Shown one piece after another: positions 2,600-22,594 of a DNA stretch of 64,000 nt (the first letter of the stretch is position 1; every line of letters begins with the position of its first letter). The notes under the pieces were generated by a model that made no database searches, had not been told where the DNA came from, and saw only the letters and a list, made by a program, of their open reading frames with translations. The position numbers were made by a program, and so were the translations under genes. The DNA lies in assembly GCA_040766885.1 (NCBI GenBank), contig JAXGPP010000008.1, positions 373,659 through 437,658 of the forward strand. The letters are read 5' to 3'. Origin of the DNA: Thermoguttaceae bacterium (GTDB lineage Bacteria; Planctomycetota; Planctomycetia; Pirellulales; Thermoguttaceae).

Positions 2600-2755
2600 T
2601 CCCACCGATGGTGAGGTTGGCCAACCGCCGAACAAGAACCAGTTGCCGCAACCCGCCCGCCATCTTTCACTAAACCTCCCCGCTTCACCCGCCCGCCAAA
2701 AACCAAATCGAACCCTTGAGCGCCGCCCTGAAACGGGTATCATTAACCTTTTCCC

Positions 2756-2828
2756 GCCCCCTTAGCTCAATCGGCAGAGCATCTGACTCTTAATCAGAGG
2801 GTTGATGGTTCGAGTCCATCAGGGGGCA
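2756..2828 (+). tRNA. tRNA-Lys(CTT), canonical
   Basis: Acceptor GCCCCCT/AGGGGGC. D-arm TAGCTCAATCGGCAGAGCA. Anticodon stem TCTGA/TCAGA with loop CTCTTAA (CTT). T-arm GATGGTTCGAGTCCATC. Discriminator A; no encoded CCA. Confidence 0.85.
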
Positions 2829-3396
2829 CTCAACACAAAGCCTTTCGCAGAAATGATTTGCGAATGGCTTTTTCTGTGCGCTTGCCAAGGGCGTTGGATT
2901 CGCCATCTAATGCAGCTTGCCGATTGCCTGTCCGGAAGAGGGGGGCGGCAACTACATCCCGCCTGACTCCCGACGACGAACCAGCGCGGCACCGCGCCCC
3001 CTGTCGGTCTCCCCCTGCTGGAACTCGTGTCGTTGGATGCTGATCTCCCGCAGCTGCCGAAACTTGGCCCATCGTCGGCGGCAGAACGGCCGGATGATTT
3101 TCGTGCACCGGTGGGAATACACACCCGTCGAAGCGCGTCCTTATAAGAGGTGCAGCCGCTTCTGCACAAAAGCCGACGAACCTTTTCGTAGTTCGCGGCG
3201 TCTATCAGTATCAGACGGGTGGAGAGAGTTTCAGGCGATCCAAGAGACTGCGAGAAGGGTGATGACTTCGTTCCGGTTGGGTATTACGAGCGAACCAGGA
3301 TGCAAAGGGCGATATGCCGATCAACCGGCGAATACCCTGCCCATGCATCCTTTGCGCTTGTGACGCTTGACCTTACGTCAGCGAGGGAAATAGAAA

Positions 3397-3428
3397 CCCG
3401 GCGTCACAAACGACGCCGGGTTTTTTGT
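3397..3428 (+). terminator. Intrinsic (rho-independent) terminator: hairpin followed by a T-run, separating the upstream non-coding stretch from the tRNA array.
   Basis: CCCGGCGTC-acaaa-GACGCCGGG forms a 9-bp GC stem, followed by TTTTTTGTT. Confidence 0.6.
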
Positions 3429-3429
3429 T

Positions 3430-3502
3430 GGGCTGGTAGCTGAGACGGTGTAGCGCCTGGCTGAAGACCAGGAGACGAGGGTTCGATTCACCTCCCGGCC
3501 CA
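3430..3502 (+). tRNA. tRNA-Phe(GAA)-like with a non-canonical D-loop and T-loop
   Basis: Acceptor GGGCTGG/CCGGCCC (one G-U). Anticodon stem CCTGG/CCAGG with loop CTGAAGA (GAA). T region GAGG-GTTCGATTCA-CCTC, i.e. an enlarged loop. Discriminator A. Confidence 0.55.
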
Positions 3503-3560
3503 CTGCGATCCGCCTGCGCGCCACCAGTAATTTGGCCACGTGGAATGTGCGCGCCGACAC

Positions 3561-3634
3561 GGCTCGTTCGTCTATCGGTACGAGGACGCCGGCCCTTCAA
3601 GCCGGAAAGGCGGGTTCAACTCCCGCACGAGCTA
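3561..3634 (+). tRNA. tRNA-Glu(TTC)
   Basis: Acceptor GGCTCGT/ACGAGCT. Anticodon stem CCGGC/GCCGG with loop CCTTCAA. T-arm GCGGG-TTCAACT-CCCGC. Confidence 0.65.
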
Positions 3635-3744
3635 CTGAGGACCGAACGGGGCAAAGGAAAGGGTATCGCCTGGTCGTTGGGAGCACGTAGACGCAACCTT
3701 CGAGACCTGCCATCCCGACTGGATTGGCAACGACTTTGGCACAT

Positions 3745-3816
3745 GGTAGTCGAGGGCCGGTTGCCCGAACACGGCTGATAACCGCGTAGTGCTGAGTTCG
3801 ACTCTCAGGGCTACCA
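3745..3816 (+). tRNA. tRNA-Ile(GAT)-like
   Basis: Acceptor GGTAGTC/GGCTACC (one G-U). D-arm GGGC-CGGTT-GCCC. Anticodon loop CTGATAA on a 4/5-bp stem. T-arm CTGAG-TTCGACT-CTCAG. Confidence 0.55.
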
Positions 3817-3881
3817 CTGGACGCGAGGAGCAATGGCATGACACATAGACGACTCAAACGCATACATCCGGCCCGAATTTC

Positions 3882-3953
3882 GGGGTCGTGGTGCAATGGC
3901 AGCACACCGGACTTTTAATCCGGCAGGTGAAGGTTCAAGTCCTTTCGGCCCCA
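3882..3953 (+). tRNA. tRNA-Lys(TTT)
   Basis: Acceptor GGGGTCG/CGGCCCC. D-arm TGGTGCAATGGCAGCACA. Anticodon stem CCGGA/TCCGG with loop CTTTTAA. T-arm GAAGG-TTCAAGT-CCTTT. Confidence 0.65.
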
Positions 3954-3963
3954 CTCATGAGCG

Positions 3964-4036
3964 TGCAGGCCAAAAGAAGAGCAGATTCGTTGGAATAGCG
4001 TGGCCGGAAGTTCGACTCTTCCCGCGCCTGCTGCCA
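3964..4036 (+). ncRNA. Aberrant tRNA-like element: acceptor plus an extended T-arm, with an encoded 3' CCA, but no recognisable D-arm or anticodon arm.
   Basis: T-arm GCCGGAAG-TTCGACT-CTTCCCGC. The 3' side GCCTGCT-G-CCA pairs with the 5' TGCAGGC. The 32-nt body does not fold into D and anticodon arms. Confidence 0.35.
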
Positions 4037-4052
4037 ACGACATGTACAGAAA

Positions 4053-4125
4053 GGGATCAAGGTGTTAGCGGCAGCATAGCGGACTCTTAATCCGCGAGGT
4101 GAGGGTTCAAGTCCCTCTGGTCCCA
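4053..4125 (+). tRNA. tRNA-Lys(CTT), second copy
   Basis: Acceptor GGGATCA/TGGTCCC. Anticodon stem GCGGA/TCCGC with loop CTCTTAA. T-arm GAGGG-TTCAAGT-CCCTC. Confidence 0.7.
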
Positions 4126-4136
4126 CTGAGAGAATC

Positions 4137-4208
4137 GCACTGGTCGTCCAGTGGCAAGGACACCGCACTCGTAACGCGGCAACGTGGGTTCGACTCCCAC
4201 CCGGTGCT
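4137..4208 (+). tRNA. tRNA-Thr(CGT)-like
   Basis: Acceptor GCACTGG/CCGGTGC (one G-U). T-arm GTGGG-TTCGACT-CCCAC. Anticodon loop CTCGTAA on a 4/5-bp stem CCGCA/CGCGG. Confidence 0.55.
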
Positions 4209-4240
4209 CTTGATCTTTGACAATCCGACACGCTTGTAGC

Positions 4241-4311
4241 GCGCCCATGATGTAGCGGCAGCCTGCCGCCTTGCCGAGGCGGAAGTGCGGGTTCAACTCC
4301 CGCTGGGCGCT
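4241..4311 (+). tRNA. tRNA-Gly(GCC)
   Basis: Acceptor GCGCCCA/TGGGCGC. Anticodon stem CCGCC/GGCGG with loop TTGCCGA. T-arm GCGGG-TTCAACT-CCCGC. Confidence 0.65.
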
Positions 4312-4320
4312 CTTGATCGA

Positions 4321-4414
4321 CAGGACGTAGGAAAGTCTGGTATTCCGCCGGGCACCGACGCGCAGCGTTGGTTGCGGGCGCACGAGATCGCCGGTTCAAA
4401 TCCGGCCGTCCTGA
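4321..4414 (+). tRNA. Class-II-length (94-nt) tRNA-like gene; anticodon arm not resolvable
   Basis: Perfect 7-bp acceptor CAGGACG/CGTCCTG. D-arm GGAA-AGTCTGGTA-TTCC. T-arm GCCGG-TTCAAAT-CCGGC. The internal 40 nt does not give a canonical anticodon stem-loop. Confidence 0.4.
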
Positions 4415-4421
4415 CTCTCGT

Positions 4422-4496
4422 TGCGGTGGGACCCGTGCTGGTACGGGTAGGCGGCTGTTAACCGCCCCGACGCAGGTTCGATTCCTGCCACCGCAG
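4422..4496 (+). tRNA. tRNA-Asn(GTT)
   Basis: Acceptor TGCGGTG/CACCGCA. D-arm CCCG-TGCTGGTA-CGGG. Anticodon stem GGCGG/CCGCC with loop CTGTTAA. T-arm GCAGG-TTCGATT-CCTGC. Confidence 0.7.
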
Positions 4497-4559
4497 CCTT
4501 TGGGAGAAAACAGAAGGTCAAGCCGGACCACCGCCGCGCGGCAGCACCCGCGATGCCAC

Positions 4560-4616
4560 TACGTTCGAAGCGGGACGAGCTTTGCGGTCTGGAGGGTTCG
4601 GCTCCCTCACCTTCCG
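4560..4616 (+). ncRNA. Truncated tRNA-like fragment (T-arm plus a short acceptor-like helix)
   Basis: T-arm GAGGG-TTCGGCT-CCCTC. The flanking AAGCGGG ... CCGCTT could pair as a minihelix. No D or anticodon arms. Confidence 0.3.
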
Positions 4617-4624
4617 CTTGCGAC

Positions 4625-4697
4625 GCGCCCTTGGCCGATCGGCACGAGGCATCAGCCTTCCACGCTGAACAGGCGGGTTCGACTCCCGCAGGGCGCT
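4625..4697 (+). tRNA. tRNA-Gly(TCC)
   Basis: Acceptor GCGCCCT/AGGGCGC. Anticodon stem TCAGC/GCTGA with loop CTTCCAC. T-arm GCGGG-TTCGACT-CCCGC. Confidence 0.65.
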
Positions 4698-4713
4698 CTC
4701 GCAGCGACAATGA

Positions 4714-4784
4714 TCGGGGATCGGCTAGCGGCAGGCCATCTGGCTTTGAACCAGAAAGTGGAGGTTCGACCCCTCCTCCCCGAA
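4714..4784 (+). tRNA. tRNA-Gln(TTG)
   Basis: Acceptor TCGGGGA/TCCCCGA. Anticodon stem TCTGG/CCAGA with loop CTTTGAA. T-arm GGAGG-TTCGACC-CCTCC. Confidence 0.65.
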
Positions 4785-4822
4785 CATGCAGGCGGACGAC
4801 TGTGTCTCGATAGGCAACACAA

Positions 4823-4893
4823 TGCGGGATCATCCAACGGCAGGATGCGACGCTCTGAACGTCGTCATGTTGGTTCGAGTCCAGCTCCCGCAG
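4823..4893 (+). tRNA. tRNA-Gln(CTG)
   Basis: Acceptor TGCGGGA/TCCCGCA. Anticodon stem CGACG/CGTCG with loop CTCTGAA. T-arm GTTGG-TTCGAGT-CCAGC. Confidence 0.65.
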
Positions 4894-5003
4894 CTTGGTA
4901 TGACGAACAACAAAGTCCGTGAGGGCCTGGAAATCGCGAAACCCGAATAATGACGCGCAACTCTGTTGTTCATTATTCGTCATCCGAATTCCTGCTTCCC
5001 CTC

Positions 5004-5074
5004 GGGGTCATGGTCCAACAGGACGACGCTGGCTCCGCAAGCCAGAGATCCGGGTGCGATTCCCGGTGACTCCA
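5004..5074 (+). tRNA. tRNA-Ala(CGC)-like; the T-loop reads TGCGATT rather than TTC...
   Basis: Acceptor GGGGTCA/TGACTCC (one G-U). Anticodon stem CTGGC/GCCAG with loop TCCGCAA. T-arm CCGGG-TGCGATT-CCCGG. Confidence 0.6.
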
Positions 5075-5085
5075 CTTGAAAGCGC

Positions 5086-5157
5086 AGCCCCGTGGTCCAA
5101 CGGCCACGACGCCTGGCCTACACCCAGGAAACGATGGTTCAACTCCATCCGGGGCTA
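5086..5157 (+). tRNA. tRNA-Val(TAC)
   Basis: Acceptor AGCCCCG/CGGGGCT. Anticodon stem CCTGG/CCAGG with loop CCTACAC. T-arm GATGG-TTCAACT-CCATC. Confidence 0.7.
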
Positions 5158-5253
5158 CTGTGGCAATGATGGAGTAGCAGCGCTGAATGATGAAACGTGA
5201 GCTCCCCCTGGGCACTTCATCATTCATCCTTCGATATTCATCATTCTGCGTCC

Positions 5254-5328
5254 GTCCTCGTGGAGCAGTCCGGAGTGCTCGCCTGCCTGTCACGCAGGAG
5301 ATCGCGGGTTCAAATCCCGTCGAGGGCG
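5254..5328 (+). tRNA. tRNA-Asp(GTC)
   Basis: Acceptor GTCCTCG/CGAGGGC (one G-U). D-arm GAGC-AGTCCGGAGT-GCTC. Anticodon stem CCTGC/GCAGG with loop CTGTCAC. T-arm GCGGG-TTCAAAT-CCCGT. Confidence 0.65.
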
Positions 5329-5342
5329 CTTTCGACAGTAGC

Positions 5343-5417
5343 GGCGCGGTACGCAAACCGGCAAAGCGGCGAAGCTCAAATCTTCGTGACCTGCGGGTTC
5401 GACTCCCGCCTGCGCCA
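5343..5417 (+). tRNA. tRNA with a Leu anticodon (CAA) but a type-I body (short variable loop)
   Basis: Acceptor GGCGCGG/CTGCGCC (one G-U). Anticodon stem CGAAG/CTTCG with loop CTCAAAT. Variable region only ~6 nt. T-arm GCGGG-TTCGACT-CCCGC. Confidence 0.55.
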
Positions 5418-5427
5418 CTGAGAACAT

Positions 5428-5511
5428 GCGTCGGCTGGGCATCGGCGTGCCCAACTGCCTGTAAAGCAGCCAGCCCGCAAGGCTATGCAGGTTCAACTCC
5501 TGCCCGGCGCA
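5428..5511 (+). tRNA. tRNA-Tyr(GTA), class II with a long variable arm
   Basis: Acceptor GCGTCGG/CCGGCGC (one G-U). Anticodon loop CTGTAAA. Long variable arm CCAGCCCGCAAGGCTAT. T-arm GCAGG-TTCAACT-CCTGC. Confidence 0.7.
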
Positions 5512-5521
5512 CTTTCAACAT

Positions 5522-5594
5522 GGCCCGTTCATCTATTGGCGAAGGACATCGGCCCCTCACGCCGGAAAGGCGGGTTCGATTCCCGCACGGGCTG
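5522..5594 (+). tRNA. tRNA-Glu(CTC)
   Basis: Acceptor GGCCCGT/ACGGGCT. Anticodon stem TCGGC/GCCGG with loop CCCTCAC. T-arm GCGGG-TTCGATT-CCCGC. Confidence 0.65.
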
Positions 5595-5602
5595 CTGAGC
5601 AT

Positions 5603-5684
5603 GACCAAGTGGCGCAACTGGAAGACGCGCGACGCTCAGAACGTCGTGCCGCAAGGCATGGGAGTTCGAATCTCCCCTTGGTCA
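5603..5684 (+). tRNA. tRNA-Leu(CAG), class II
   Basis: Acceptor GACCAAG/CTTGGTC. Anticodon stem CGACG/CGTCG with loop CTCAGAA. Long variable arm TGCCGCAAGGCAT. T-arm GGGAG-TTCGAAT-CTCCC. Confidence 0.7.
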
Positions 5685-5793
5685 CTCTTGGTTACGTGGT
5701 TGGTTGTGCGGCACTTCCCTGCGGTCTCGACCGCGAAGCCGGGCTCGTTACACTCGCCCTTGCCTCATTCTCGGCCCGGCAACCAAAAGGCAT

Positions 5794-5863
5794 TGCAGGC
5801 GCGGCAGGTGCCGAACTGGCTCCCATAAGGCCGGTGCGCCCGGTTCGATACCGGGGCCTGCAA
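5794..5863 (+). tRNA. tRNA with a CAT anticodon (Met or Ile2), with an unusual CC at positions 32-33
   Basis: Acceptor TGCAGGC/GCCTGCA. Anticodon stem TGGCT/GGCCG (two G-U) with loop CCCATAA. T-arm CCCGG-TTCGATA-CCGGG. Confidence 0.55.
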
Positions 5864-5879
5864 CTTTGAAAAACACGCT

Positions 5880-5948
5880 GCGGGTGGGCGCAGGCTCAAC
5901 CGGGCTTCATAAGCCTGGAATGTCGGGTGCAACTCCCGGACCCGCCAC
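5880..5948 (+). tRNA. Second CAT-anticodon tRNA-like gene (69 nt, degenerate)
   Basis: Acceptor TGCGGGT/ACCCGCC (one mismatch). Anticodon region GGC-TTCATAA-GCC. T-arm TCGGG-TGCAACT-CCCGG. Confidence 0.45.
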
Positions 5949-5953
5949 TTGCG

Positions 5954-6027
5954 ACCGGGTACGCGAATTGGCATAGCGACGAGGTCGAGGGCCTCGTGTC
6001 TGTGGGTTCGACTCCCACTCCGGTCAC
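5954..6027 (+). tRNA. tRNA with a Leu anticodon (GAG) but a type-I body
   Basis: Acceptor GACCGGG/TCCGGTC (one G-U). Anticodon stem (A)CGAGG/CCTCG(T) with loop TCGAGGG. 5-nt variable loop. T-arm GTGGG-TTCGACT-CCCAC. Confidence 0.55.
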
Positions 6028-6040
6028 TGACTGCACGACG

Positions 6041-6111
6041 GGCTCGTGGTCCAACGGGACGACACCAGCGCGGCATGCTGGAAACGCGGGTTCAACTCCC
6101 GCCGGGTCCAT
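6041..6111 (+). tRNA. tRNA-Ala(GGC)-like
   Basis: Acceptor GGGCTCG/CGGGTCC (two G-U). Anticodon stem CCAGC/GCTGG with loop GCGGCAT. T-arm GCGGG-TTCAACT-CCCGC. Confidence 0.55.
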
Positions 6112-6117
6112 TGGTTA

Positions 6118-6215
6118 AAAGCAATCAGCTTTCAGCTTTCAGCTTTCAGCTTTCAGTGATGAGTGTAAATCGGACGGCTGAAAGCTGACCGCTGAGAGCT
6201 GATAGCTGCCCATAT
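6118..6215. repeat. Heptamer tandem repeat (TCAGCTT)x4 followed by its imperfect inverted complement, which could form a long hairpin
   Basis: The sequence is cagctttcagctttcagctttcagctttcag ... ggctgaaagctgaccgctgagagctgatagctg. Confidence 0.7.
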
Positions 6216-6290
6216 GGTGTTCGTGGTGTAGCGGTCGCTGCATGGCTGGCTGTGAACCAGCAGGTGGGAGTTCGACTCTCCCCGGGCACC
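6216..6290 (+). tRNA. tRNA-His(GTG) with the G-1:C73 hallmark
   Basis: An extra 5' G(-1) at 6216 faces discriminator C6290. Acceptor GTGTTCG/CGGGCAC. Anticodon stem GCTGG/CCAGC with loop CTGTGAA. T-arm GGGAG-TTCGACT-CTCCC. Confidence 0.75.
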
Positions 6291-6311
6291 CCTTTCGGAA
6301 AGGAGATCACG

Positions 6312-6908
6312 ATGGTCGCCAAGGTACTTGAGCAACCGACGCTGGTGCTGAACCGCAACTGGCAGCCGGTCCACGTGGCAACCGTGGAGCGTGCGCTCGT
6401 GCTGCTCTGGAACGACTCGGCCCGCGTGGTCGATCCGGCCGACTTTCAGCTCTACGACTGGGCCGACTGGTCGAAGCTGCAGCCTGGCCATGGCGAGGCG
6501 TTCGTCCAGGCGGTCCGGTTCAAGCTGCGCGTGCCGGAGGTCGTTGTCCTCAGCGGCTACGACCGCCTGCCGGTGGCCCGCGTGACGTTCAGCCGGCGCA
6601 ACATCTTCAAGCGCGACCACTACACCTGCCAATACTGTAGCGCCCGACCGGGCAGCGAGGAATTGACCGTGGACCACGTGGTGCCGCGGGCGCAGGGTGG
6701 TGTATCAAGCTGGGAGAACTGCGTGCTGGCCTGCACGGCCTGCAACAAGCGGAAGGCCGACCGCACGCCGGAGCAGGCGGGCATGAAACTTCGCAAGAAG
6801 CCGGTCCGCCCGGAGTGGAAGCCGCTTTACGCGGACCGCGAGGTGCGGATCGCCAGTTGGTCGAAGTTCATCAGCGAAGCCTACTGGAACGTGGCACTGC
6901 GCGAGTAG
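6312..6908 (+). CDS. HNH endonuclease embedded in the tRNA array
   Basis: Strong RBS GGAAAGGAG 6 nt before the ATG at 6312. The HNH motif reads DHYTCQYCSARPG ... LTVDHVVPRAQGG ... NCVLACTACNKRKADRT (His-Asn-His with CxxC/CxxC zinc ligands). Confidence 0.85.
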   Translation: MVAKVLEQPTLVLNRNWQPVHVATVERALVLLWNDSARVVDPADFQLYDWADWSKLQPGHGEAFVQAVRFKLRVPEVVVLSGYDRLPVARVTFSRRNIFKRDHYTCQYCSARPGSEELTVDHVVPRAQGGVSSWENCVLACTACNKRKADRTPEQAGMKLRKKPVRPEWKPLYADREVRIASWSKFISEAYWNVALRE

Positions 6909-6916
6909 TGCCGTTA

Positions 6917-6948
6917 CGCCCGGTCCCCGATCACTGATCGGGGACCAC
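6917..6948 (+). terminator. Perfect 11-bp GC-rich hairpin immediately after the HNH stop; no T-run (likely a terminator or RNA-processing hairpin)
   Basis: GGTCCCCGATC-actg-GATCGGGGACC. Confidence 0.45.
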
Positions 6949-6951
6949 TAC

Positions 6952-7021
6952 AGGAGTGTCCTCCTGGGAGAGGAAGCGGTCTCCAAAGCCGCCCGACAGG
7001 GTTCGAATCCTTGCACTCCTG
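6952..7021 (+). tRNA. tRNA-Trp(CCA)
   Basis: Acceptor AGGAGTG/CACTCCT. Anticodon stem GCGGT/GCCGC (one G-U) with loop CTCCAAA. T-arm CAGGG-TTCGAAT-CCTTG. Confidence 0.65.
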
Positions 7022-7047
7022 CTTTTGGAAGATGAGAACGAAGAACT

Positions 7048-7119
7048 GCCGGCGTGGCCGAACAGCGAGGCGGCGGTCCTGTAAACCGCACAATGCTGGT
7101 GCAATTCCAGCCGTCGGCT
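7048..7119 (+). tRNA. tRNA-Thr(TGT); T-loop TGCAATT
   Basis: Acceptor GCCGGCG/CGTCGGC (one G-U). Anticodon stem GCGGT/ACCGC with loop CCTGTAA. T-arm GCTGG-TGCAATT-CCAGC. Confidence 0.65.
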
Positions 7120-7187
7120 CTGAAAAGAGCTCTCAGCAGTCCTGATTTGAGCTGATCGCTGAGGGTTGGCGGCTCACGGGCCGCGAT

Positions 7188-7259
7188 GTCCCGATAGTGT
7201 AGCGGATCGCATCGGAGCCTCCGAAGCTCCAGGCCCTGGTTCGAATCCAGGTCGGGATA
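7188..7259 (+). tRNA. tRNA-Arg(CCG)
   Basis: Acceptor GTCCCGA/TCGGGAT. D region TAGTGTAGCGGATCGCAT. Anticodon stem GGAGC/GCTCC with loop CTCCGAA. T-arm CCTGG-TTCGAAT-CCAGG. Confidence 0.7.
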
Positions 7260-7301
7260 CTCAAGAGGGTGAGACATCGTTGTGCATCCACTCTACTGCT
7301 T

Positions 7302-7374
7302 GTCCTCGGAGTGTGCCGGATCAGCACGCGACCGTGCGAAGGTCGTAGACCAGGTTCGACTCCTGGCGAGGACG
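7302..7374 (+). tRNA. tRNA-Arg with an unusual GCG anticodon
   Basis: Acceptor GTCCTCG/CGAGGAC. Anticodon stem CGACC/GGTCG with loop GTGCGAA. T-arm CCAGG-TTCGACT-CCTGG. Confidence 0.6.
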
Positions 7375-7422
7375 TTTTCGAAGCGTGCGGCCACCGCGAA
7401 ACGGCGGCGGTCGCACGCGAAG

Positions 7423-7494
7423 GGCGCTGGAGCCAGACGGCAAGGCAACCGCCTGCAAAGCGGTTTTACGCGGGTTCGACTCCCGCCTGCGCCT
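7423..7494 (+). tRNA. tRNA-Cys(GCA)
   Basis: Acceptor GGCGCTG/CTGCGCC (one mismatch). Anticodon stem ACCGC/GCGGT with loop CTGCAAA. T-arm GCGGG-TTCGACT-CCCGC. Confidence 0.65.
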
Positions 7495-8075
7495 CTGAGG
7501 CGGTCCGACTGCCGGTTCAGACTACATCCGTTGAAAAGGTGAACCGGTCCGAACCAATTCTCGTCGGCCTTCCTCTAACAAAGATGTCCAACTGCCTGCC
7601 GGGACTACATTCACTGTAACTGAACCGTCTCGGCGAAAACTTCGTTGGGCGTTGTGAGAACACATCGGGCGACTGCCCGGTTGGAGTACATATCGGTTCA
7701 AATCCGGTCGCCCCGACTGAACACTTGCGCGAGCGGGGCGTGGCTCAACGGTAGAGCACCTCTGGCCACCACCTCGTCGCCTATTGAATACAGACCGACT
7801 GCCGGTTGGAGTACATGCCTGAAGAGCCGGGGGTTGTGGGTTCGAATCCCACCAGCGCCACTCACTCACTTGAGCGCTGTAGCTCAATGGTAGAGCACCG
7901 TAAAGTTCTCTGACCAACCCCTCGTCGGTCCTTTTGAGACAACAGGAGACACGACCCGACTGACCGAGTGGAGTACATCCACCATCACCAAGCCTGGGAG
8001 GCGGGAGCTTCCCAATACGGACGGATCTGCGGATTCGACCGTACGGCGCCTCTGCTCATCCCTCGTCGGGTCATG
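7495..8075 (+). ncRNA. Cluster of 4-5 repeated tRNA-like modules sharing a bipartite conserved motif; candidate Y-RNA (YrlA-like) genes directly upstream of the Ro60/Rsr gene
   Basis: The motif GACTGCCGGTTGGAGTACAT and its variants occur at 7507, 7591, 7671, 7797 and 7958. Each is preceded 25-37 nt upstream by CTCGTCGG-like boxes at 7561, 7640 (variant), 7772, 7921 and 8063. Units C (about 7734-7860) and D (about 7872-8050) carry canonical D-arms (GCTCAACGGTAGAGC and GCTCAATGGTAGAGC). Unit C has a T-arm GTGGG-TTCGAAT-CCCAC and an acceptor-like pairing GGCGTGG/CAGCGCC around a ~78-nt insert in place of the anticodon arm. Unit B (about 7675-7726) is an acceptor (TCGGGCG/CGCCCCG) plus T-arm (ATCGG-TTCAAAT-CCGGT) mini-structure. 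GGTCCGA occurs twice in unit A. Confidence 0.4.
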
Positions 8076-8091
8076 CTATGTGAAGGAGGTC

Positions 8092-9723
8092 ATGATGGCC
8101 AACAAGAACCTGTTCGCCAGCCTGAAGAGCCGTTTCGTCCGGGCCGATGCTCGGAATGAGGCAGGAGGCCGCGCGTACGCGCTGGAGCCGAAGCACGCCC
8201 TGGCGCAGCTTGCCGCCACGGGCTGCTTCAACGGCGCCTACTACGCCGGCGCCGACGAGCAATTGGCCACGCTGAAGACGCTCGTCGAGCAGGTGGCCGA
8301 CAATGCCTTCCTCGCGAAGCTGGCGGTTTACAGCCGCCAGCGGGCGATGATGAAGGACATGCCGGTGGCCTTGCTGGTCGTGCTGTCGAAGCGCGATCCG
8401 GCCTTGTTCCGCAAGGCGTTCAATCGCGTGGTGGACAACGGCCGTACCCTGCGCACGATGGTGCAATTCGTCCGCTCGGGCCAGTTCGGCCGCAAGAGCC
8501 TGTCGTACGCCCTGCAGCGGGCTGTCCAGCGGTGGCTGAACTCGGCTTCGGTCGAGAAGCTGCTGTCGGCCTCGATCGGCAACGATCCGAGCCTGCGGGA
8601 CGTGCTGCGGCTGGCGCGGCCGACCCCGGCCGACAACGCTCGGCGTGCCCTGTTCGGCTGGCTGACCGATAAGCCGGTTGAGAAGTGGGCGCCGGCCACC
8701 GAGGCCGACCTGCCGGAGGAGGTCCGTGCGCTAGAGGCGTTCCGCCAGGCGGAGACGGCCGAGGTGCAACTCCAGGCTCTCGGCAAGCTGCGCGCTCGCT
8801 GGGACCTCTTGGCCGATGCGGCCAAGGGTCCGGCGGTTTGGGCGGAGGTTGCCCGGAAGATGGGGCCGCAGGCGCTGCGGATGAACCTCAACACGCTGGT
8901 CCGCCAGGGCGTCATCGGCCCGGATGCCAAGGGAGAGATGGTCGACTATGTGGCGGCGCGGCTGGCCGATGCCGAGGAGATCCGCCGCTCGCGGCAGTTC
9001 CCGTACCAGTTCCTCGCTGCATACCTTAACGTCGGTGACGGCGTTCCGCAGAAGATCAAGTCCGCCCTGCACAAGGCGGCGGAGATCGCCTGCGGCAACG
9101 TGCCGGAATTGCCGGGTCCGATCGTGATCGGACTCGACGTATCGGGCTCGATGAGCATGCCGGTTACGGGTAACCGCGGCCGGGGCGCGACGAGCAAGAT
9201 GCGCTGCGTGGACGTAGCGGCCCTGTTCGCCGCTGCCATCCTGCGCCGCAATCCGGAGAGCGTGGTCATCCCGTTCGACACGTCGGCTTACGAGGCCAAG
9301 GTTGATCCGAGCGACTCGGTCCTCAGCCTGGCCGATCGGCTGGCCCGTTTCGGTGGTGGCGGCACGAACTGCTCGCTGCCGTTGGCCGCGGCCAATGGCT
9401 GGTACGCAAGCCGGAAGTTCGCCGGCTGTGTGCTGGTGAGCGACAACGAGAGCTGGGTCGGCACAGGCCGCGGCGGCTCAACGGCCGTCATGACCGAGTG
9501 GCAGGCGTTCGTCCGCAACCAGGTGCGGTTGCACGGCCGGGGTTTTTCAGGCCCGAAGCTGGTCTCGATCGACCTCCAGCCGTACACCACGACCCAGGCC
9601 CCGGAGCGCAGCGACATCCTGAACGTCGGCGGCTTCAGTGACGCCGTGTTCAGCGTCGTGGCTGCCTTCCTGGCCGGCGACGGCGGCCGGTTCGTCGCCG
9701 AGGTCGAAGCGGTCGAGCTGTAG
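8092..9723 (+). CDS. rsr: Ro60/Rsr orthologue: TROVE-domain ribonucleoprotein with a C-terminal von Willebrand A (MIDAS) domain
   Basis: Strong RBS AAGGAGG at 8083-8089; the ORF opens with a GTG at 8080 and in-frame ATGs at 8092 and 8095. The N-terminal ~350 aa has a Ro60-like pattern ([22 protein letters not shown] ... [33 protein letters not shown]). The C-terminus is vWA-like with [14 protein letters not shown] ... GGGT ... SDNESW. Confidence 0.7.
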
Positions 9724-9744
9724 ACCGGCAGAACCTGATGCAAG

Positions 9745-9778
9745 TCAGCCAGCGCCCATTCGGGGCGCTGGCTGACAC
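9745..9778. terminator. 14-bp perfect hairpin between the convergent rsr and glycoside hydrolase genes (bidirectional terminator-like)
   Basis: GTCAGCCAGCGCCC-attcg-GGGCGCTGGCTGAC. Confidence 0.5.
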
Positions 9779-9803
9779 ATCAGCCGCAGTAGAGAGACCA
9801 CGT

Positions 9804-11816
9804 TCACTCGACCGGCACGACTTCAAAAACCGCTGTCTCAAACGGCGCCAGTTCGACCCTCGCCGACTCTCCGGCTCGAACGGTCATCTCCGACCGCGGT
9901 GGACTGCCGCTCCACGGCCAGACCAGCCGGTACTCGCGCGCGGCGCCCTCGGGTAGCTCCAGCGCACCTCCGATGTCGAGCGAGAAATTTGCCGGCGACG
10001 CGGACGGGTTGCGTAGCATGAGCGTGCCCAGACGCGGCGACCAGGCCGCAAATCCGTAGACTTGCCCCTCCGCCGGATCGCCTCCGATCCAGTGCGCGTC
10101 CACGAGCACGTCGGCATTCTTCCGCAACCAGGCCGCCCCCTCGGCCAGCGAGTCCCACATCTCGGGCGTCAGCTTCTGCGGCGTGATGTATAGCTCCTGG
10201 AGCTGCGTGCCGGTGGCGAAGAACGAGCGGACTTCGTCGTTCCAGTCTTTCAGCTCGGTGCTCATCCGGGCGGCGGGGCCCAGTTGCGCGTGGACGATCC
10301 CCTGCGTCATCAGCGAGTTGACCGGATAGAGCGGCGCCCGCCGGACGATGCCCTTGTAGGTGTGCATGTCGCGGTAGGTGATCCACTGCTGCCGCATCGT
10401 GCCCGGTCCGAAGAAGTCCATATCGCTGCCGTTGCGCCACACCGAGTCGCCAAAGAACAGCCAGTAGGGCGACGGCCACGTACCGGTAGTGATGCTCAGA
10501 TAGAGATCGGGGCGCAGGCCGCGCAGCTCGCGGCAAAGTCGCAGCAGTGCGTCGACGTCGGCGGCAAATGACTCACCCGCACCGGTGGAAGAAAGCCCCT
10601 GGGCAATGCCGTCGAATTTGAAGTAGTTTACGCCGTAACGCTCGACCATCTCACGGCAAACCTCACGGAAACGGCCGTAGTATTTCGGGCCGGCCAGCGC
10701 AAATCCGCGGGCGTTGGTTTCGAATCCCTGCGTCTTGCCGTACTCCATCCGTTCGGCCTTCGCCCCACCGTACCCTCCCCACGGCGAGAGCCACACACCG
10801 ACGGCCGTCTGGTGCCGTGCGGCGGCTGCGGAGAGCGGCGAAAAACCGTGCGGGAAACCGTCATGGAACCGCCACAACGTGCGGTTGTCGTCCCAGCCGT
10901 CGTCGAAGACGGCCGAATCGAGCTTGCCTCCCCGTCGATCGACAAACTCGCGCCCGAAGGCCTCGATCACCTCGATGCACTGGGCTTCGTTCATCTTTCG
11001 ATCGCCCCAGGCGATGTCGTACCACGAGTTGTAGTGCAAGAACGGCGCGTAGGGCCGCGGCCGCTCGCGCTCCAGGTAGTAAAGAAACCCGCGGCGCAAC
11101 TGGCCCGGCGGTACAACTCCCACGACGGTGCTCCGTACACACTCTCGCGGCTCGTCGGCGTTGGGGTATGTGCCCACGCTGCAAACGATCCGCCCTTCGT
11201 CGACGCGATTGGAAGCCATTGGGTGCTCGCAAGCCAGGAATAAGTTGCCGCAGACCACCGGCGAGCCGTCCACTTCGCCCGCCACGCGGGCCTCGGTCGC
11301 CGGCAGATCAATAAGCAACAGGCGTTCGACTTTGGCCGCTTCCGGCGAAGGCAGCAGCGTGACTTCCTGGCGGATGTAGTTCGAATCGTCGCGAAGCACT
11401 GCCTTCCATCGCAACCGAACCGCGTCGCTGCCGAGACTCAGGTTCGCTATTGCGCTGAACCCGCCTGAGCGTTCCGCGGCCGAGACGGCATCGGCACGGG
11501 AAGCGATGCGTTCGATCCGCAGTCCGTCGACTACACGGGCGGCGGAGAGCTTCAACGTCGCACCGTCCGCCGGCCCGGAATCGTTCGCGCCCGCGCGAAG
11601 TACGCTTCCGGTGGCCAGGTCGGCCACTTCCATCAGCGTCAGCCGCCCGTCGGCCAGGCTCCAAGTGGCCGCGAGCAACTGGTTTCTCATCACGAGCCGT
11701 CCCTCCTTCAGCTCGGCGGTCGCGGCGCCGGGCCTCGCACCCGGCAGTTCCAGAGCGCCGGCGGCCGTGGCGCCAAAGATCGTGACTACGCTTACGCCAA
11801 TGAGCAGGCTTCGCAT
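9804..11816 (-). CDS. Secreted glycoside-hydrolase-like protein (TIM-barrel, GH27/GH36-like); family uncertain
   Basis: ORF of 670 aa. N-terminal signal peptide MRSLLIGVSVVTIFGATAAGA. Internal NYFKFDGI and WLSPWGGYG motifs are reminiscent of the melibiase-type catalytic region. Confidence 0.55.
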   Translation of the reverse strand: MRSLLIGVSVVTIFGATAAGALELPGARPGAATAELKEGRLVMRNQLLAATWSLADGRLTLMEVADLATGSVLRAGANDSGPADGATLKLSAARVVDGLRIERIASRADAVSAAERSGGFSAIANLSLGSDAVRLRWKAVLRDDSNYIRQEVTLLPSPEAAKVERLLLIDLPATEARVAGEVDGSPVVCGNLFLACEHPMASNRVDEGRIVCSVGTYPNADEPRECVRSTVVGVVPPGQLRRGFLYYLERERPRPYAPFLHYNSWYDIAWGDRKMNEAQCIEVIEAFGREFVDRRGGKLDSAVFDDGWDDNRTLWRFHDGFPHGFSPLSAAAARHQTAVGVWLSPWGGYGGAKAERMEYGKTQGFETNARGFALAGPKYYGRFREVCREMVERYGVNYFKFDGIAQGLSSTGAGESFAADVDALLRLCRELRGLRPDLYLSITTGTWPSPYWLFFGDSVWRNGSDMDFFGPGTMRQQWITYRDMHTYKGIVRRAPLYPVNSLMTQGIVHAQLGPAARMSTELKDWNDEVRSFFATGTQLQELYITPQKLTPEMWDSLAEGAAWLRKNADVLVDAHWIGGDPAEGQVYGFAAWSPRLGTLMLRNPSASPANFSLDIGGALELPEGAAREYRLVWPWSGSPPRSEMTVRAGESARVELAPFETAVFEVVPVE

Positions 11817-19134: not shown

Positions 19135-19869
19135 GTGATGGAAACGCGTGAAACCAGTCAAGTACACCAGTGGCCTGCATGGCAATGGAACGAGATTCAG
19201 CAGGTCGGCACCGACTATGCGGATGTCGCGGAAGTCGAGCGCTACGAGCAGCGGATGGGAGAATTCCGCAATCTGCCGGCCGAGGATGCCGCTATTCTCG
19301 ATCGACTCTCTTTGCCTGCCGGATCGCACATTCTGGAGATCGGTACCGGGACGGGGCATTTTGCCCGCGCGGCGGCACGCGCCGGTTATCGCGTCACGGC
19401 CCTGGACGTCTCGCCGGCCATGCTGCGATACGCCGCAGATCGCGCGAAGGCCGACCGACTGGCCGGCATCGAATTCTGCCACGCCGGGTTTCTCACCTTC
19501 ACCGCCGCGCCGGCCACGTTCGATGCGGCCGTCTCGGTCGCCGTGCTGCACCATCTGCCCGACCTGTGGAAGGCCGCGGCACTCGGCAACATCCACCGCG
19601 CCTTGAAGCCTGGAGGCCTGTTTCTCTTGTGCGACGTGGTCTTCTCGACGCAGCACGGCGATCCGTGCTCGCAATTCGAAGCCTTTATCGACGCCGTGCC
19701 CCAATCCATGCGTGACGGGGCGATCGGCCATATTGCACGGGAATACAGCACGCTGGATTGGATCATGGAAGGCTTGCTCACTCGCGCCGGCTTCACGATC
19801 GAGCGCATGGTGGACTCTCAAGCTCCGCTCGTTCAGTACCAGTGCAAGGTCGCAGGCCAGTTTGCGTGA
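19135..19869 (+). CDS. Class I SAM-dependent methyltransferase
   Basis: Motif I ILEIGTGTGHFARAAARAGYRVTALDVSPAML, and post-I LFLLCDVVF. Confidence 0.75.
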   Translation: MMETRETSQVHQWPAWQWNEIQQVGTDYADVAEVERYEQRMGEFRNLPAEDAAILDRLSLPAGSHILEIGTGTGHFARAAARAGYRVTALDVSPAMLRYAADRAKADRLAGIEFCHAGFLTFTAAPATFDAAVSVAVLHHLPDLWKAAALGNIHRALKPGGLFLLCDVVFSTQHGDPCSQFEAFIDAVPQSMRDGAIGHIAREYSTLDWIMEGLLTRAGFTIERMVDSQAPLVQYQCKVAGQFA

Positions 19870-19905
19870 CGGGACGTGCCGTGAGCCGTTACGGCAAGGA
19901 GACCG

Positions 19906-20541
19906 TTGCAGCCCCAGGGGTTGCCGGGAGGAATGATGGACGATTCGGTCAACGTGATTCAACGGGCACAGCATCGTCGGCAGACGGCCGAGGCCATTCT
20001 GCGAGACCTGGACCTGATGAGTCGATGGCGGCAATTCGGCCGGCCGGTCCTGGTAGGCGCGTTGTCGTTCGATCTGGCGGTCGCCCCCGATATCGACATG
20101 GAAGTCTACTGCCCCGAGCTCAAGATTGAACACGGGTTTGAGGTTCTCCGCGAATGCGCGCTGAACGCCCGCGTCACGTCCGCCTTGTTCCTCAACGCCC
20201 TGAACACTCCCGACCAGGCCCTGTATTGGCAACTGAAGTGTCGCGGCGACGATGGCGCGGAGTGGAAGATCGACATGTGGTCCGCGCCCGAGGATTATCC
20301 GCTTCCTCGCGGTGAGCACTTTGTCGGGCCGATGCAGCAGGCCCTGACGCCGGAAACCCGCATGGCGATTCTGACCCTGAAGGAAGCCCGGGCGGCGGGC
20401 GAGTTGCCAGGATTCCTTTCCATCGATCTCTACCGCGCGGTCATTGACGACGGCGTCCGCACCACCGACCAGTGGCGCCAGTGGCAGCAAACCCACGAGA
20501 CGGGTGTGTTGACCGCCTGGAAGCCGGCCCCTGTGGCATAG
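19906..20541 (+). CDS. Nucleotidyltransferase-fold protein (minimal NTase-like); function unknown
   Basis: GALSFDLAVAPDIDMEVYC resembles the GS-x(n)-D-x-D NTase core. The start is uncertain; 19933 is an alternative. Confidence 0.4.
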   Translation: MQPQGLPGGMMDDSVNVIQRAQHRRQTAEAILRDLDLMSRWRQFGRPVLVGALSFDLAVAPDIDMEVYCPELKIEHGFEVLRECALNARVTSALFLNALNTPDQALYWQLKCRGDDGAEWKIDMWSAPEDYPLPRGEHFVGPMQQALTPETRMAILTLKEARAAGELPGFLSIDLYRAVIDDGVRTTDQWRQWQQTHETGVLTAWKPAPVA

Positions 20542-20582
20542 CCGCTGACACGCATGCAGGAACCAACTCGGTCACCTTTTTC

Positions 20583-20900
20583 GGCCCTCGGCCCGGTGGC
20601 ACTGGCGCAGCCAGTGCTCTTCCCGTCCGTCTCTTGCAGCCAAGAACTGGCAACAACGCGTCCGCGAGGAGCGAAACCGTTCCAGGGGGCTTTCTCCTAG
20701 TATGATCGGGTGACACTGGCGAAGCCAGTGCTCTTCACGTGCGTCTCTTGCAGCCAAGAATTGCCGGAAACACGTCCGCGAAGATCGAAACCGTTCCAGG
20801 GAACTTTATCCTAGTATGATCTGGTGCCACTGGCGAAGCCAGTGCTCTTCCCATGCGTCTCTTGCAGCAAGAATTGCCGGAAATGTCTCCGCGTAGTCTA
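20583..20900. repeat. ~120-bp tandem repeat, 2.7 copies, each with an internal 7-bp hairpin
   Basis: Unit: GGTGnCACTGGCGmAGCCAGTGCTCTTCnCGTnCGTCTCTTGCAGCCAAGAAyTGsC...CGTCCGCGA.G..CGAAACCGTTCCAGGG..CTTT.TCCTAGTATGATC. Copies start at about 20583, 20707 and 20827. The hairpin is CACTGGC-gca-GCCAGTG. Confidence 0.8.
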
Positions 20901-21667
20901 GTCCTTTCCGCCAGGGACGGCATGAAGGGCCGAAACAGATCTCCCTCAGTTCCGGCTGCCATGAAACAGCCGGGTGTCCAAGACGACCCTCCACTCTCCC
21001 CCCAAAACATTCAACTCCGGCGGCTGCCACCTTTGTCGTCCCCGATAGGGCTGAATACTGCCGCTTAGCGGCAACTGCATGATTAGCCGGGTGTGCAGCG
21101 GAGCGCACGCCGCCACCCATCCCCATCGGCCTTGCCCGCCTCCGCTCATCCCTCTCCCAGCCGCGCACGCGGCGGCAGCCAATAGCCCACGGCGTAAGCC
21201 GTGGGACCCCGGCCCCGAAAGACGTTTTCTTCCCAAGCCCCATCAGGGGCGACAGCCTACACCGCCGAGCCGAGAACGCGCCGCGTGCCATGTCCTCGGC
21301 TCCGCCGTAGACATGCAGGAACCGCCGCGACCAACTCGCCGCGGAGGCTTTCAGAATCGACCTCCAACTCGCCGCCAGTCCGCTTGGGCAAGAGGAACAG
21401 AACCTTGCGCCAGGCCGTCGCGAAGGCCGCCGCCGTGACGGGGAAGTCTACTTCCGCATGGTTCGCGTTCTCCAGGTAGACGTACTGCCATCCCCGTTCG
21501 TGATCCCCCGAGTGTCTTACACCGGTGTAATAGCCCGTCAAGAGAGCCCCGGGCGTGTTCTGCCGCCGCGTTGGGCGGCATAGCACGCCGGCCCCGTGGG
21601 GCGTTGCTCCGCAACTGTTATCGTAGCCGTGACTTGTGCGGGCACGGACGAGAAGTCCTGGGAGTGT

Positions 21668-21700
21668 TCTGCCGCTCGGTCCGGCGGCAGAACACCCCGC
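21668..21700. promoter_or_regulatory. 12-bp perfect palindrome in a ~1-kb GC-rich ORF-less region, with repeated GCATAGCACGC and GTGTTCTGCCGC words
   Basis: GTGTTCTGCCGC-tcggtccg-GCGGCAGAACAC. The flanking repeats are gtgttctgccgccgcgttgggcggcatagcacgcc and cgcatagcacgctggcc. Confidence 0.4.
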
Positions 21701-22397: not shown

Positions 22398-22594
22398 CTT
22401 CCGAACACAACCAGCGGCTGAAGCTGACCCGGGCCGCCATCCTGGTTTCCGAAATTCAACGTTCTTGCGGGCGGCCCCGGCAGCTTAGCCGCATCGTTCG
22501 GCTCACCCCTGCTCGCTGCAACGATACGCTGGCGCACGCAAGTAGCGTTGGGGTGTTTAACGATCTGGTCAACGTCGACAGACGGGCTGCCTGG

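Follow-up and report, generated by a model that had tools for sequence, protein, structure and literature searches.

Why should a gene for the RNA-binding protein Rsr, the bacterial Ro60, stand at the end of a long run of tRNA genes? The question is raised by positions 8092–9723 in a stretch of 64,000 nt from a Thermoguttaceae bacterium (Planctomycetota; GenBank assembly GCA_040766885.1, contig JAXGPP010000008.1, positions 373,659–437,658), the whole of which is called the window here. An earlier note had described an Rsr orthologue encoded directly after a tRNA array, and had read the two as a co-transcribed module for the surveillance and repair of tRNA or structured RNA. Our analysis has supported that interpretation in part. 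The best explanation of the results is that positions ~3178–9723 form a self-contained 6.5-kb cassette found in many Planctomycetota, in which a putative promoter and a short leader with a proposed terminator switch are followed by 28 tRNA genes with an embedded HNH endonuclease gene, five Y RNA genes and rsr. We consider it slightly better than an even bet that this cassette is a translation-stress-inducible operon, which would supply spare tRNAs together with an Rsr–Y RNA particle. Our confidence in the parts list is high and in the regulatory model moderate; the physiological role is only inferred.

The gene itself is a true bacterial Ro60/Rsr orthologue. The features at this end of the cassette are as follows.

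8083..8089, + strand: Shine-Dalgarno sequence AAGGAGG of rsr, read from the sequence, with ATGATGG next
8095..9723, + strand: rsr, Ro60/Rsr orthologue (TROVE HEAT-repeat ring and vWA domain with a metal ion-dependent adhesion site, MIDAS), 542 aa, identified by profile, structure and homologue comparisons; alternative ATG at 8092
9744..9776, no strand assigned: perfect 14-bp GC-rich hairpin, a possible terminator without a U tract, between rsr and a convergent gene ending at 9804

The Pfam models TROVE (PF05731; 50.3 bits against a cut-off of 23, E 2.8e-13) and vWA_Ro60 (PF25045; 46.1 bits against a cut-off of 27.7) both matched the product of rsr. A phmmer search of the PDB returned Deinococcus radiodurans Rsr (2nvo) at E 7e-25 over residues 15–530, with LDVSGSM lying opposite LDVSGSM, and also the Ro60 proteins of a Thermus phage, human and Xenopus. 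The MIDAS residues D349, S351, S353, T425 and D451 were invariant in 20 homologues. An AlphaFold2 (AF2) model of the protein had a mean predicted local distance difference test (pLDDT) score of 79.6; in a Foldseek comparison with the PDB, its 13 best matches were all Ro60, Rsr or TROVE structures over the full length (E 1e-14 to 1e-17, TM 0.64–0.76), 2i91 and 9nep among the best, and isolated vWA domains ranked next. The earlier note had claimed a TROVE plus vWA protein with an intact MIDAS motif and a strong AAGGAGG ribosome-binding site, and all of this has been borne out. Two of the checks it had proposed, by HMMER against Pfam and by structure prediction, came out in its favour, and the TROVE match whose absence it had named as a refutation is present. 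Its 547-aa open reading frame (ORF) at 8092 is real, with the length in need of correction: 547 aa is reached from GTG 8080 to the stop TAG 9721–9723, and the ATGs at 8092 and 8095 give 543 and 542 aa. ATG 8095, 5 nt past AAGGAGG, is the likeliest start, since an identical database protein (P0001) has 542 aa and the homologues start MANK.

The statement that Rsr is uncommon fails for this lineage. More than 5,900 database proteins matched the product at E<=1e-10, the closest named ones coming from metagenome-assembled genomes (MAGs) of Thermoguttaceae and Pirellulales, and a search of a species-representative genome collection has found 378 stretches that encode a relative. The comparisons reported below use 80 loci (cited as L002, L003 and so on where one has to be named), all of them in Planctomycetota MAGs or on contigs binned with them, with Rsr identities of 68–87%. 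The hairpin at 9744–9776 is not conserved in the other loci.

Moving upstream, rsr follows co-oriented tRNAs as the earlier note had said, and the word 'directly' does not hold: 596 nt separate the gene from tRNA-Cys, and they are filled by five tandem Y-RNA-like genes at 7497–8072, two of which are YrlA-like with a tRNA-like domain, and which had escaped the earlier note. A permissive Rfam scan detected four of them and reading of the sequence the fifth; all five were matched by our own covariance model, R1, built from an alignment of the fourth element of the window (Y4) with 28 orthologues.

7497..7575, + strand: Y RNA 1, a simple hairpin with a Ro-binding-like stem (GGUCCGACUGCC...CUCGUCGGCC) and the shared 5' motif; Rfam YrlB-like 17.5 bits; R1 25.3 bits, E 7e-5
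7581..7653, + strand: Y RNA 2, a simple hairpin; Rfam YrlB-like 18.6 bits; R1 25.9 bits, E 5e-5; fold z = -3.0
7666..7786, + strand: Y RNA 3, YrlA-like, with T arm, acceptor-like stem and D arm; Rfam YrlA 35.2 bits, E 6e-6; R1 70.6 bits, E 1e-16
7792..7934, + strand: Y RNA 4 (Y4), YrlA-like and the best conserved, with a Ro-binding stem and a permuted tRNA-like domain; Rfam YrlA 54.5 bits, E 1.5e-11; R1 138.8 bits
7953..8072, + strand: Y RNA 5, ending 10 nt 5' of the rsr ribosome-binding site, read from the sequence; R1 21.8 bits, E 6e-4

The gathering threshold of the YrlA model (RF02553), 69 bits, was not reached by the two YrlA-like elements, and an Rfam scan of the window at gathering thresholds shows no Y RNA; Planctomycetota Y RNAs would be missed at the curated cut-off because they fall below it. 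The evidence for them comes from elsewhere. When R1 was run over the whole window with its filters off, the top five matches were the five elements, at the scores given above. All five share the 5' motif GNCGACUG(C/A)C...GGAGUACAU and the 3' motif CUCGUCGnnn, and across the 80 loci the 5' motif had 159 matches within the 1.5 kb upstream of rsr (108 kb in total) against 27 in the other 2.25 Mb, both strands being counted. The closing 7-bp stems covary (GACCGAC/GUCGGUC, ACUCGAC/GUCGAGU, AUCCGAC/GUCGGAU, GGGCGAC/GUCGCCC and others), and in an alignment of the rsr-proximal element compensatory changes were present in 7 of the 14 pairs of the Ro-binding stems P1 and P2. The motif in that stem is the variant GNCGACUG as against the GNCGAA(N)G type of YrlA; the stem is present and covarying. 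Y4 aligned to the whole Rfam YrlA model (positions 1–114), and with its 28 orthologues it has a GGGUUCGAnUCCC T arm, an acceptor-like stem closed by a loop and a AGCUCAAUGGnAGAGC D arm, with compensatory changes in the T arm and the acceptor-like stem.

The position of these RNAs is as constant as their shape. R1 gave 325 matches at E<=0.01 across the loci, and among the matches listed 300 of 300 lie on the rsr strand; scores above 100 bits were obtained in about 60 loci. The last Y RNA ends 19–34 nt 5' of the rsr ATG in 27 loci including the window, a set defined as the loci whose last Y element of 90–130 nt lies no more than 45 nt from rsr. In the window all five lie on the rsr strand less than 600 nt from the gene, inside the 4 kb of rsr used as a criterion for YrlA. 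Judged by sequence and covariation, the five RNAs are Y-RNA homologues with a Ro-binding stem, two of them carrying a tRNA-like domain. Binding of Y RNAs or misfolded RNAs by the window Rsr has indirect support, in that Y-RNA genes abut rsr in nearly every locus. A second Y-RNA-like cluster, scoring up to 130 bits, was seen in L032 at 19484–20293, about 8 kb 3' of rsr.

The layout of the YrlA-type RNAs also bears on where they may have come from. Their elements run in the order anticodon-loop-like hairpin, T arm, acceptor 3' strand, loop, acceptor 5' strand and D arm. The anticodon-loop-like hairpin was taken as A2 columns 29–40 of the alignment of Y4 with its 28 orthologues, and CAU is the commonest triplet in it. 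In the window this hairpin lies at 7818–7830, immediately 5' of the T arm, with 2–4 bp and a 7-nt loop of the form Y-U-NNN-R-A. A YrlA-type RNA thus ordered reads like the end of one tRNA and the start of the next in a tandem pair, a hint that tRNA arrays were where Y RNAs arose. Chen et al. (PMC4201824) have reported that dimeric tRNAs give false positives for YrlA, and R1 gave weak matches on tRNA junctions.

The array itself can now be described.

3430..7495, + strand: 28 tRNA genes for 18 amino acids, with the decoders of Pro and Ser absent; ARAGORN and Rfam
6252..6908, + strand: ORF for a homing-type HNH endonuclease between tRNA-His and tRNA-Trp; Pfam HNH E 1.5e-14

ARAGORN found 27 tRNAs on the + strand in 3430–7495, and Rfam together with a relaxed ARAGORN run added tRNA-Ala(cgc) at 5004–5074. 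With 28 genes in 4,066 nt, all on the + strand, the density is 6.9 genes per kb, above the limits that define a long tRNA array or L-array (>=20 genes at >=2 per kb). The count of 30 genes in the earlier note was close, the window holding these 28 and a stand-alone tRNA-Lys(ctt) at 2756–2829, which lies 1.2 kb 5' of the array with its own promoter-like site and terminator. CCA is encoded by no tRNA gene in the window. The tRNA-Lys(ctt) at 4053 in the array and the stand-alone tRNA-Lys(ctt) at 2756 are identical at only 46 of 74 positions. The array looks like a supernumerary tRNA set of separate ancestry, because this duplicate is divergent and because the cassette is patchy in its occurrence and does not share its flanks. 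The array tRNAs score below the stand-alone tRNA-Lys (73 bits), and those that fall below the gathering threshold include the genes starting at 3745, 4422, 5428, 5794, 6952 and 7301 (Ile, Asn, Tyr, Met, Trp and Arg-gcg).

One ARAGORN call, a 95-nt 'tRNA-Gly(acc)' at 4321–4415, was rejected; the gene is homologous to the 75-nt tRNA-Pro genes that other arrays have, and carries an insertion. The insertion is a hairpin of ~23 nt (CACCGACGC-GCA-GCGUUGGUG) in the anticodon region. Its sequence recurs elsewhere in L004, L033, L022 and L002, and L003 has kept it in its shortened array; a very small mobile hairpin and an intron-like element are two possible identities. For the HNH gene, the true start is probably at about 6300, since 6252 overlaps tRNA-His. 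Searches with tblastn found the gene on the + strand in 24 other loci at 60–81% identity, and where it was compared with a tRNA map (for example in L002) it lies inside the array.

Do the array, the Y RNAs and rsr belong together? In many genomes the flanks differ while a fixed order and strand are seen for array, HNH gene, Y RNAs and rsr. Upstream sequence of 5 kb or more was available for 43 loci; the count of tRNAs was 10–42 in 20 of these, 1–9 in 10 and zero in 13, so that co-oriented tRNAs stand immediately 5' of rsr in 30; across all loci only 2 upstream tRNAs were on the opposite strand. The arrays nearly always finish with tRNA-Cys(gca), and their genes follow, with losses, a common isotype order (F E P I K I K T G P N S G Q Q S W V L D L Y E L M L V T A A S R S H W T R R R R C). 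The window resembles other loci at the DNA level from about 3300 as far as 9725–9734, just past the rsr stop. When five flanking proteins of the window were searched by tblastn against the 80 loci, no syntenic counterpart was found. Downstream flanks shared DNA in 15 of 1,830 locus pairs, which is a weak test in that species-level representatives are perhaps too diverged for blastn. Some genomes have two copies of rsr (L003 and L004 on contig CAWDQE010000014.1, L018 and L055, L012 and L080), one copy having a full array of 33–36 tRNAs and the other a reduced array (L003, with 3 tRNAs and an intact leader) or none.

The suggestion that rsr and the tRNA array are one module has held up, in that tRNA order, the embedded HNH gene and the position of rsr recur as a conserved co-oriented unit behind a single 5' leader. 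No credible terminator was predicted on the + strand in 3430–9723, and the whole cassette is probably one transcription unit. What, then, would control it? The region 5' of the array has the following features.

3178..3203, + strand: promoter-like element GAACC-N16-CGTCT, which recurs in other leader loci, about 60 nt 5' of the leader ATG
3262..3363, + strand: leader ORF of 33 codons (MTSFRLGITSEPGCKGRYADQPANTLPMHPLRL*), conserved in 12 other loci
3397..3426, + strand: intrinsic terminator (CCCGGCGTC-ACAAAC-GACGCCGGG-T6), ending 3 nt before tRNA-Phe

GAACC-N16-CGTCT was found 179–211 nt 5' of the leader stop in 10 of the 12 other leader loci; the distance is 289 nt in L035, and L006 has the variant CATCT. 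Base composition predicts about 19 matches in 2.49 Mb and 61 were counted; the element also precedes arrays or Y RNAs in further loci. It resembles promoters of the extracytoplasmic function (ECF) sigma factors, whose consensus we take to be AAC/CGT. About 45 nt 5' of GAACC, at ~3134–3146, most leader-bearing loci have a second conserved box, GCGTC(C)TTATA, which could be a second promoter element or the site of a regulator.

A leader ORF of 31–33 codons is present in 13 loci including the window, its ATG falling in a single column of the alignment and its stop within GTGAC. It lies 70–185 nt 5' of the first array tRNA in all of them, and its indels are all multiples of 3; those downstream of it are not. 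When all loci were translated in six frames, the motif A[DG]QPANTLP...LRL* of the peptide was found in the 12 loci and the window and gave 2 other, unrelated-looking matches. The terminator hairpin is conserved in 12 loci with compensatory changes, and transcription of the array must pass it because no promoter fits between the terminator and tRNA-Phe. The leader and the terminator are joined by their sequences. The UGA stop of the leader sits in UUGUGACGC (3358–3366), the 5' strand of a proposed antiterminator, and these positions are complementary to the 5' arm and loop of the terminator (3401–3409, GCGTCACAA); across loci the stop stands within UUGUGAC(A/G)C, the reverse complement of that arm and loop. 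For the 9-bp antiterminator 90.7% of alignment cells were paired, against 19–55% when the strands were slid, and 2 pairs were compensatory. In the window a three-way change (A>G in the upstream strand, T>C in the terminator 5' arm and A>G in the 3' arm) keeps both alternative helices. Folded singly, each leader forms a long hairpin that sequesters the region of the stop codon, together with the terminator (window z = -6.1). The leader is retained in L003 and L051, ahead of the Y RNAs and rsr, where the array has shrunk to 3 tRNAs. This anatomy, on which the earlier note was silent, suggests a ribosome-sensing attenuator.

Control by sigma-54 was considered and rejected. The window encodes a sigma-54 enhancer-binding protein (GAF, AAA+ and HTH_8) at 659–2599 on the + strand, just 5' of the stand-alone tRNA-Lys. 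The promoter pattern TGGCAC-N5-TTGCW occurred at chance level, with none in 2600–3430, and this activator is not conserved with the cassette.

The operon that we favour would work as follows. Transcription would start at an ECF-sigma-type stress promoter, and ribosome-mediated attenuation would gate the cassette. In normal translation the ribosome would reach the UGA and cover the antiterminator strand, the terminator would form and the operon would be off. With no translation the leader hairpin would sequester the antiterminator strand and the terminator would form too. Only a ribosome stalled early in the leader, when charged tRNAs are scarce or damaged or translation is inhibited, would let the antiterminator form and the polymerase enter the array. 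RNase P and RNase Z would then release the tRNAs, the rsr message being the 3' end of the precursor, and the cell would gain a sequence-divergent spare tRNA set as well as Rsr–Y RNA particles. If they act like their counterparts in D. radiodurans and Salmonella, these ribonucleoproteins (RNPs) may pass on RNAs that are structured, misfolded or damaged, here most likely tRNAs or the long poly-tRNA precursor, to PNPase or another 3'-5' exonuclease.

A number of observations weigh against this reading. At the level of the protein, the NCBIfam equivalog NF041674 ('RNA-binding protein Rsr') matched over positions 18–530 of its 531-position model at 103.6 bits, far under the cut-off of 900, for which reason the product is placed in a divergent, distant Rsr subfamily; no PNPase or other nuclease partner was identified. 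Seven array tRNAs score under the Rfam tRNA threshold and one has an insertion, and part of the set may not decode. At the promoter, the ECF assignment was made by consensus resemblance only, with no ECF sigma gene nearby among the window ORFs scanned. In the leader, the antiterminator and the self-pairing have 2 compensatory pairs each and most columns are simply conserved, the long hairpin shows weak covariation, and an RNAalifold consensus recovered the terminator and a small apical hairpin only. None of the 13 leader peptides has a repeated run of regulatory codons. The leader was present in 10 of about 19 arrays with a captured 5' end, and in L021 and L057 the promoter motif stands directly 5' of the first tRNA. 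Lastly, rsr may also be transcribed separately, because extra promoter-like motifs precede the Y RNAs in some loci.

Other explanations of the same locus have to be set beside the stress-inducible operon. It is unlikely, in our judgement, that the cassette is a counter-defence island derived from a phage or mobile element, in which divergent tRNAs would replace those cut by anticodon nucleases, Rsr-stabilised Y RNAs would be decoys or recruiters of PNPase, and the host would merely be the carrier. Ro-like proteins do occur in 377 phage records, and the closest, of Myxococcus phage Mx1 (42% identity), has 17 or more tRNA genes around it, as well as an HNH endonuclease and a peptidyl-tRNA hydrolase. 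A homing-type HNH gene within the array, the patchy presence of the cassette, two copies in some MAGs and variable flanks would all suit such an origin. Moreover, tRNA arrays have been proposed as anti-defence systems (PMC12803027, PMC10264068), and the Ro60 of phage phiLo binds Y-like RNAs of the phage and the PNPase of its host (PMC12135203). Set against this are the tight 6.5-kb boundaries, with no integrase, phage structural gene or att-like repeat bordering the cassette in the window; the only integrase (31050) is 21 kb off in another element. The contigs of all 80 loci have been assigned to bacterial MAGs, and the promoter and leader are of a host-type, regulated kind that would fit domestication.

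The other two rivals place the cassette in the host and give it a smaller meaning. We doubt strongly that Rsr and the Y RNAs serve only array maintenance, that is, quality control and 3' trimming of the poly-tRNA precursor and disposal of misfolded, non-canonical array tRNAs, with no general role in stress or RNA decay. Of the 43 rsr loci with enough upstream sequence, 13 have Y RNAs and no tRNA array within 10 kb, and the Rsr–Y RNA pair is therefore kept independently of the array; elsewhere in bacteria Rsr acts on rRNA and in stress survival (PMC4201824, PMC12135203). Against these findings stand the tight linkage with rsr always at the 3' end of the array, the presence of non-canonical tRNAs (the seven below the Rfam cut-off and the one with an insertion in the anticodon region) and the known binding of misfolded small RNAs in the central cavity of Ro60, of which 2i91 and 9nep, named above as structural matches, are examples. 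Very improbable is a pure accident of history, by which YrlA-type Y RNAs arose at tandem tRNA junctions and stayed with rsr, with no functional or regulatory coupling between the array and Rsr. The element order of the YrlA-type RNAs is the one expected at a tRNA–tRNA junction, and both the YrlA false positives on dimeric tRNAs (PMC4201824) and the weak R1 matches on tRNA junctions agree with it; yet order and strand are kept across loci at 68–87% Rsr identity, leader and promoter are kept in the shrunken arrays of L003 and L051, and no terminator was predicted between the array and the Y RNAs or rsr. Origin at a tRNA junction and a present function of the Y RNAs are not mutually exclusive; such an origin may account for where the Y RNAs came from, not for the conserved operon layout.

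The stress-inducible operon remains the reading that we prefer. A bolder form of it, offered tentatively and rather doubtful as a whole, is that of a widespread, self-regulating 'translation emergency kit': a stall-sensing leader and a stress-sigma promoter would release Rsr, a full set of spare tRNAs and five Y RNAs that mimic tRNAs, the last born in situ from tRNA–tRNA junctions. If true, leader-peptide attenuation would be known for the first time from genes of tRNAs and non-coding RNAs, and Ro60 and Y RNA would for the first time be tied directly, through regulation, to tRNA supply. Two long-open questions, the targets of bacterial Ro60 and its tRNA-like Y RNAs and the purpose of supernumerary tRNA arrays, meet in one cassette headed by what looks like a sensor of translation, and a testable hypothesis is offered for both, namely that ribosome stalling yields spare tRNAs and the Rsr–Y RNP. 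The permuted-tRNA layout of YrlA-type RNAs beside tRNA arrays further suggests an origin for Y RNAs.

Other features were noted elsewhere in the window. A separate integrated element at 20500–32433 lies beside tRNA-Ser(gct) (32344–32433, - strand) and has a tyrosine integrase (31050–32381), a primase/helicase (26474–28615; DUF3854, DUF5906, Pox_D5) and many ORFs without a Pfam match. The integrase and primase at 26–32 kb were considered as parts of the cassette and set aside, belonging as they do to this element. Within the same putative element, Rfam found an Acido-Lenti-1 RNA at 21159–21205 (- strand; 42 bits against a gathering threshold of 37). Site-specific integration of the cassette at tRNA-Lys(ctt) was likewise unsupported, with no direct repeat longer than 9 nt linking 2700–3300 to 9690–10000 and no adjacent integrase. 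Further downstream are a KaiC-like double-domain ATPase (40378–42306) and a hybrid of PAS histidine kinase and response regulator (43046–45487).

Several parts of the cassette are already known singly, namely Rsr, YrlA-type Y RNAs and long tRNA arrays, and the linkage of TROVE genes with tRNA clusters has been reported in archaea and phages. Our literature search found no account of a bacterial (Planctomycetota) array–Y RNA–rsr cassette, of a five-fold Y RNA block or of a leader/terminator switch before a tRNA array, and an earlier mention in Ro60 reviews is possible. Chen et al. (2014; PMC4201824) have described the Rsr–Y RNA–PNPase RNP of D. radiodurans (RYPER) and have found YrlA and YrlB beside rsr in more than 250 bacteria and phages. 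The window resembles these systems in its TROVE and vWA ring with an intact MIDAS, in several same-strand Y RNAs immediately 5' of rsr, in at least one Y RNA with a T arm, an acceptor-like stem and a D arm, and in a GNCGA-type motif of the Ro-binding stem. It differs in having five tandem Y RNAs in place of two to four, in its motif GNCGACUG as against GNCGAA(N)G, in scores under the YrlA gathering threshold and in the extra anticodon-loop-like hairpin of its RNAs. In addition, the window locus is joined to a 28-gene array with a leader and proposed attenuator, and no nuclease partner was identified for it.

In Salmonella, an RNA-repair operon, rsr-yrlBA-rtcBA, has been described that is controlled by RtcR and induced by damaged tRNAs (PMC7790460, PMC9879122). 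The likeness lies in rsr and Y RNAs within one stress-induced operon, triggered by tRNA damage or trouble in translation (operon and trigger both being proposals for the window), and in the presence of a sigma-54 activator upstream. The window locus, however, has no sigma-54 promoter, its activator has GAF, AAA+ and HTH_8 domains by Pfam (with no CARF detected) and is not conserved beside the cassette, the gene 3' of rsr is convergent and unrelated, and the control proposed is leader-peptide attenuation. Genes rtcB and rtcA do not adjoin the cassette, and neither RtcB nor RtcA was found among the 28 large ORFs of the window that were scanned. The 'repair' half of the role suggested by the earlier note therefore finds no footing here, there being no RtcB/RtcA ligase or cyclase gene adjoining the cassette, no sigma-54 promoter found and no conserved activator upstream.

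L-arrays have been reported from seven phyla including Planctomycetes, linked to HNH and rtcB genes (PMC8421152; also PMC4758250, 2016). Santamaria-Gomez et al. (2021; PMC8421152) have shown that the L-array of Anabaena stays silent unless translation is impaired, and that it shares its regulation with rtcB. The window array shares with L-arrays at least 20 co-oriented tRNAs at more than 2 per kb, an apparently supernumerary and patchy character, a linked HNH gene and genes of RNA metabolism nearby; unlike it, the arrays in those papers come with no mention of Ro60, TROVE or Y RNAs, and the Anabaena array is under the control of DNA repeats at its promoter, where a leader peptide and terminator are proposed for the window. 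Morgado and Vicente (2019; PMC6333295) have reported a TROVE gene with 20 of 29 archaeal tRNA clusters. This is the same physical linkage of TROVE and tRNA genes, reported earlier, in another domain of life; the account is descriptive, and Y RNAs, a regulatory leader and a conserved gene order are undescribed in it.

The proposed switch has its nearest models in the ribosome-mediated attenuators of amino-acid operons (trp, his and pheL type), which likewise have a short leader ORF, a self-paired leader, an antiterminator overlapping the end of the ORF and a terminator before the first gene. That of the window precedes RNA genes (tRNAs and Y RNAs) and rsr, not biosynthetic enzymes, and its leader has no single-codon run. 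Phages, finally, offer another parallel. In Mx1, in cluster C mycobacteriophages such as Bxz1 and in Thermus phage phiLo, a Ro-like gene is found in or near tRNA-rich DNA with HNH and peptidyl-tRNA hydrolase genes. The Mx1 region (our L081, 47915–67510) surrounds the Ro-like gene with 17 or more tRNA genes and with genes for a small vWA protein, an HNH endonuclease and a peptidyl-tRNA hydrolase; R1 matched there only a tRNA-Lys/tRNA-Asn junction (27 bits), a false positive of the dimeric-tRNA kind. The identities are 23–42%, and the phage tRNAs are interspersed with many ORFs, whereas the cassette of the window is compact, chromosomal and provided with a leader of its own.

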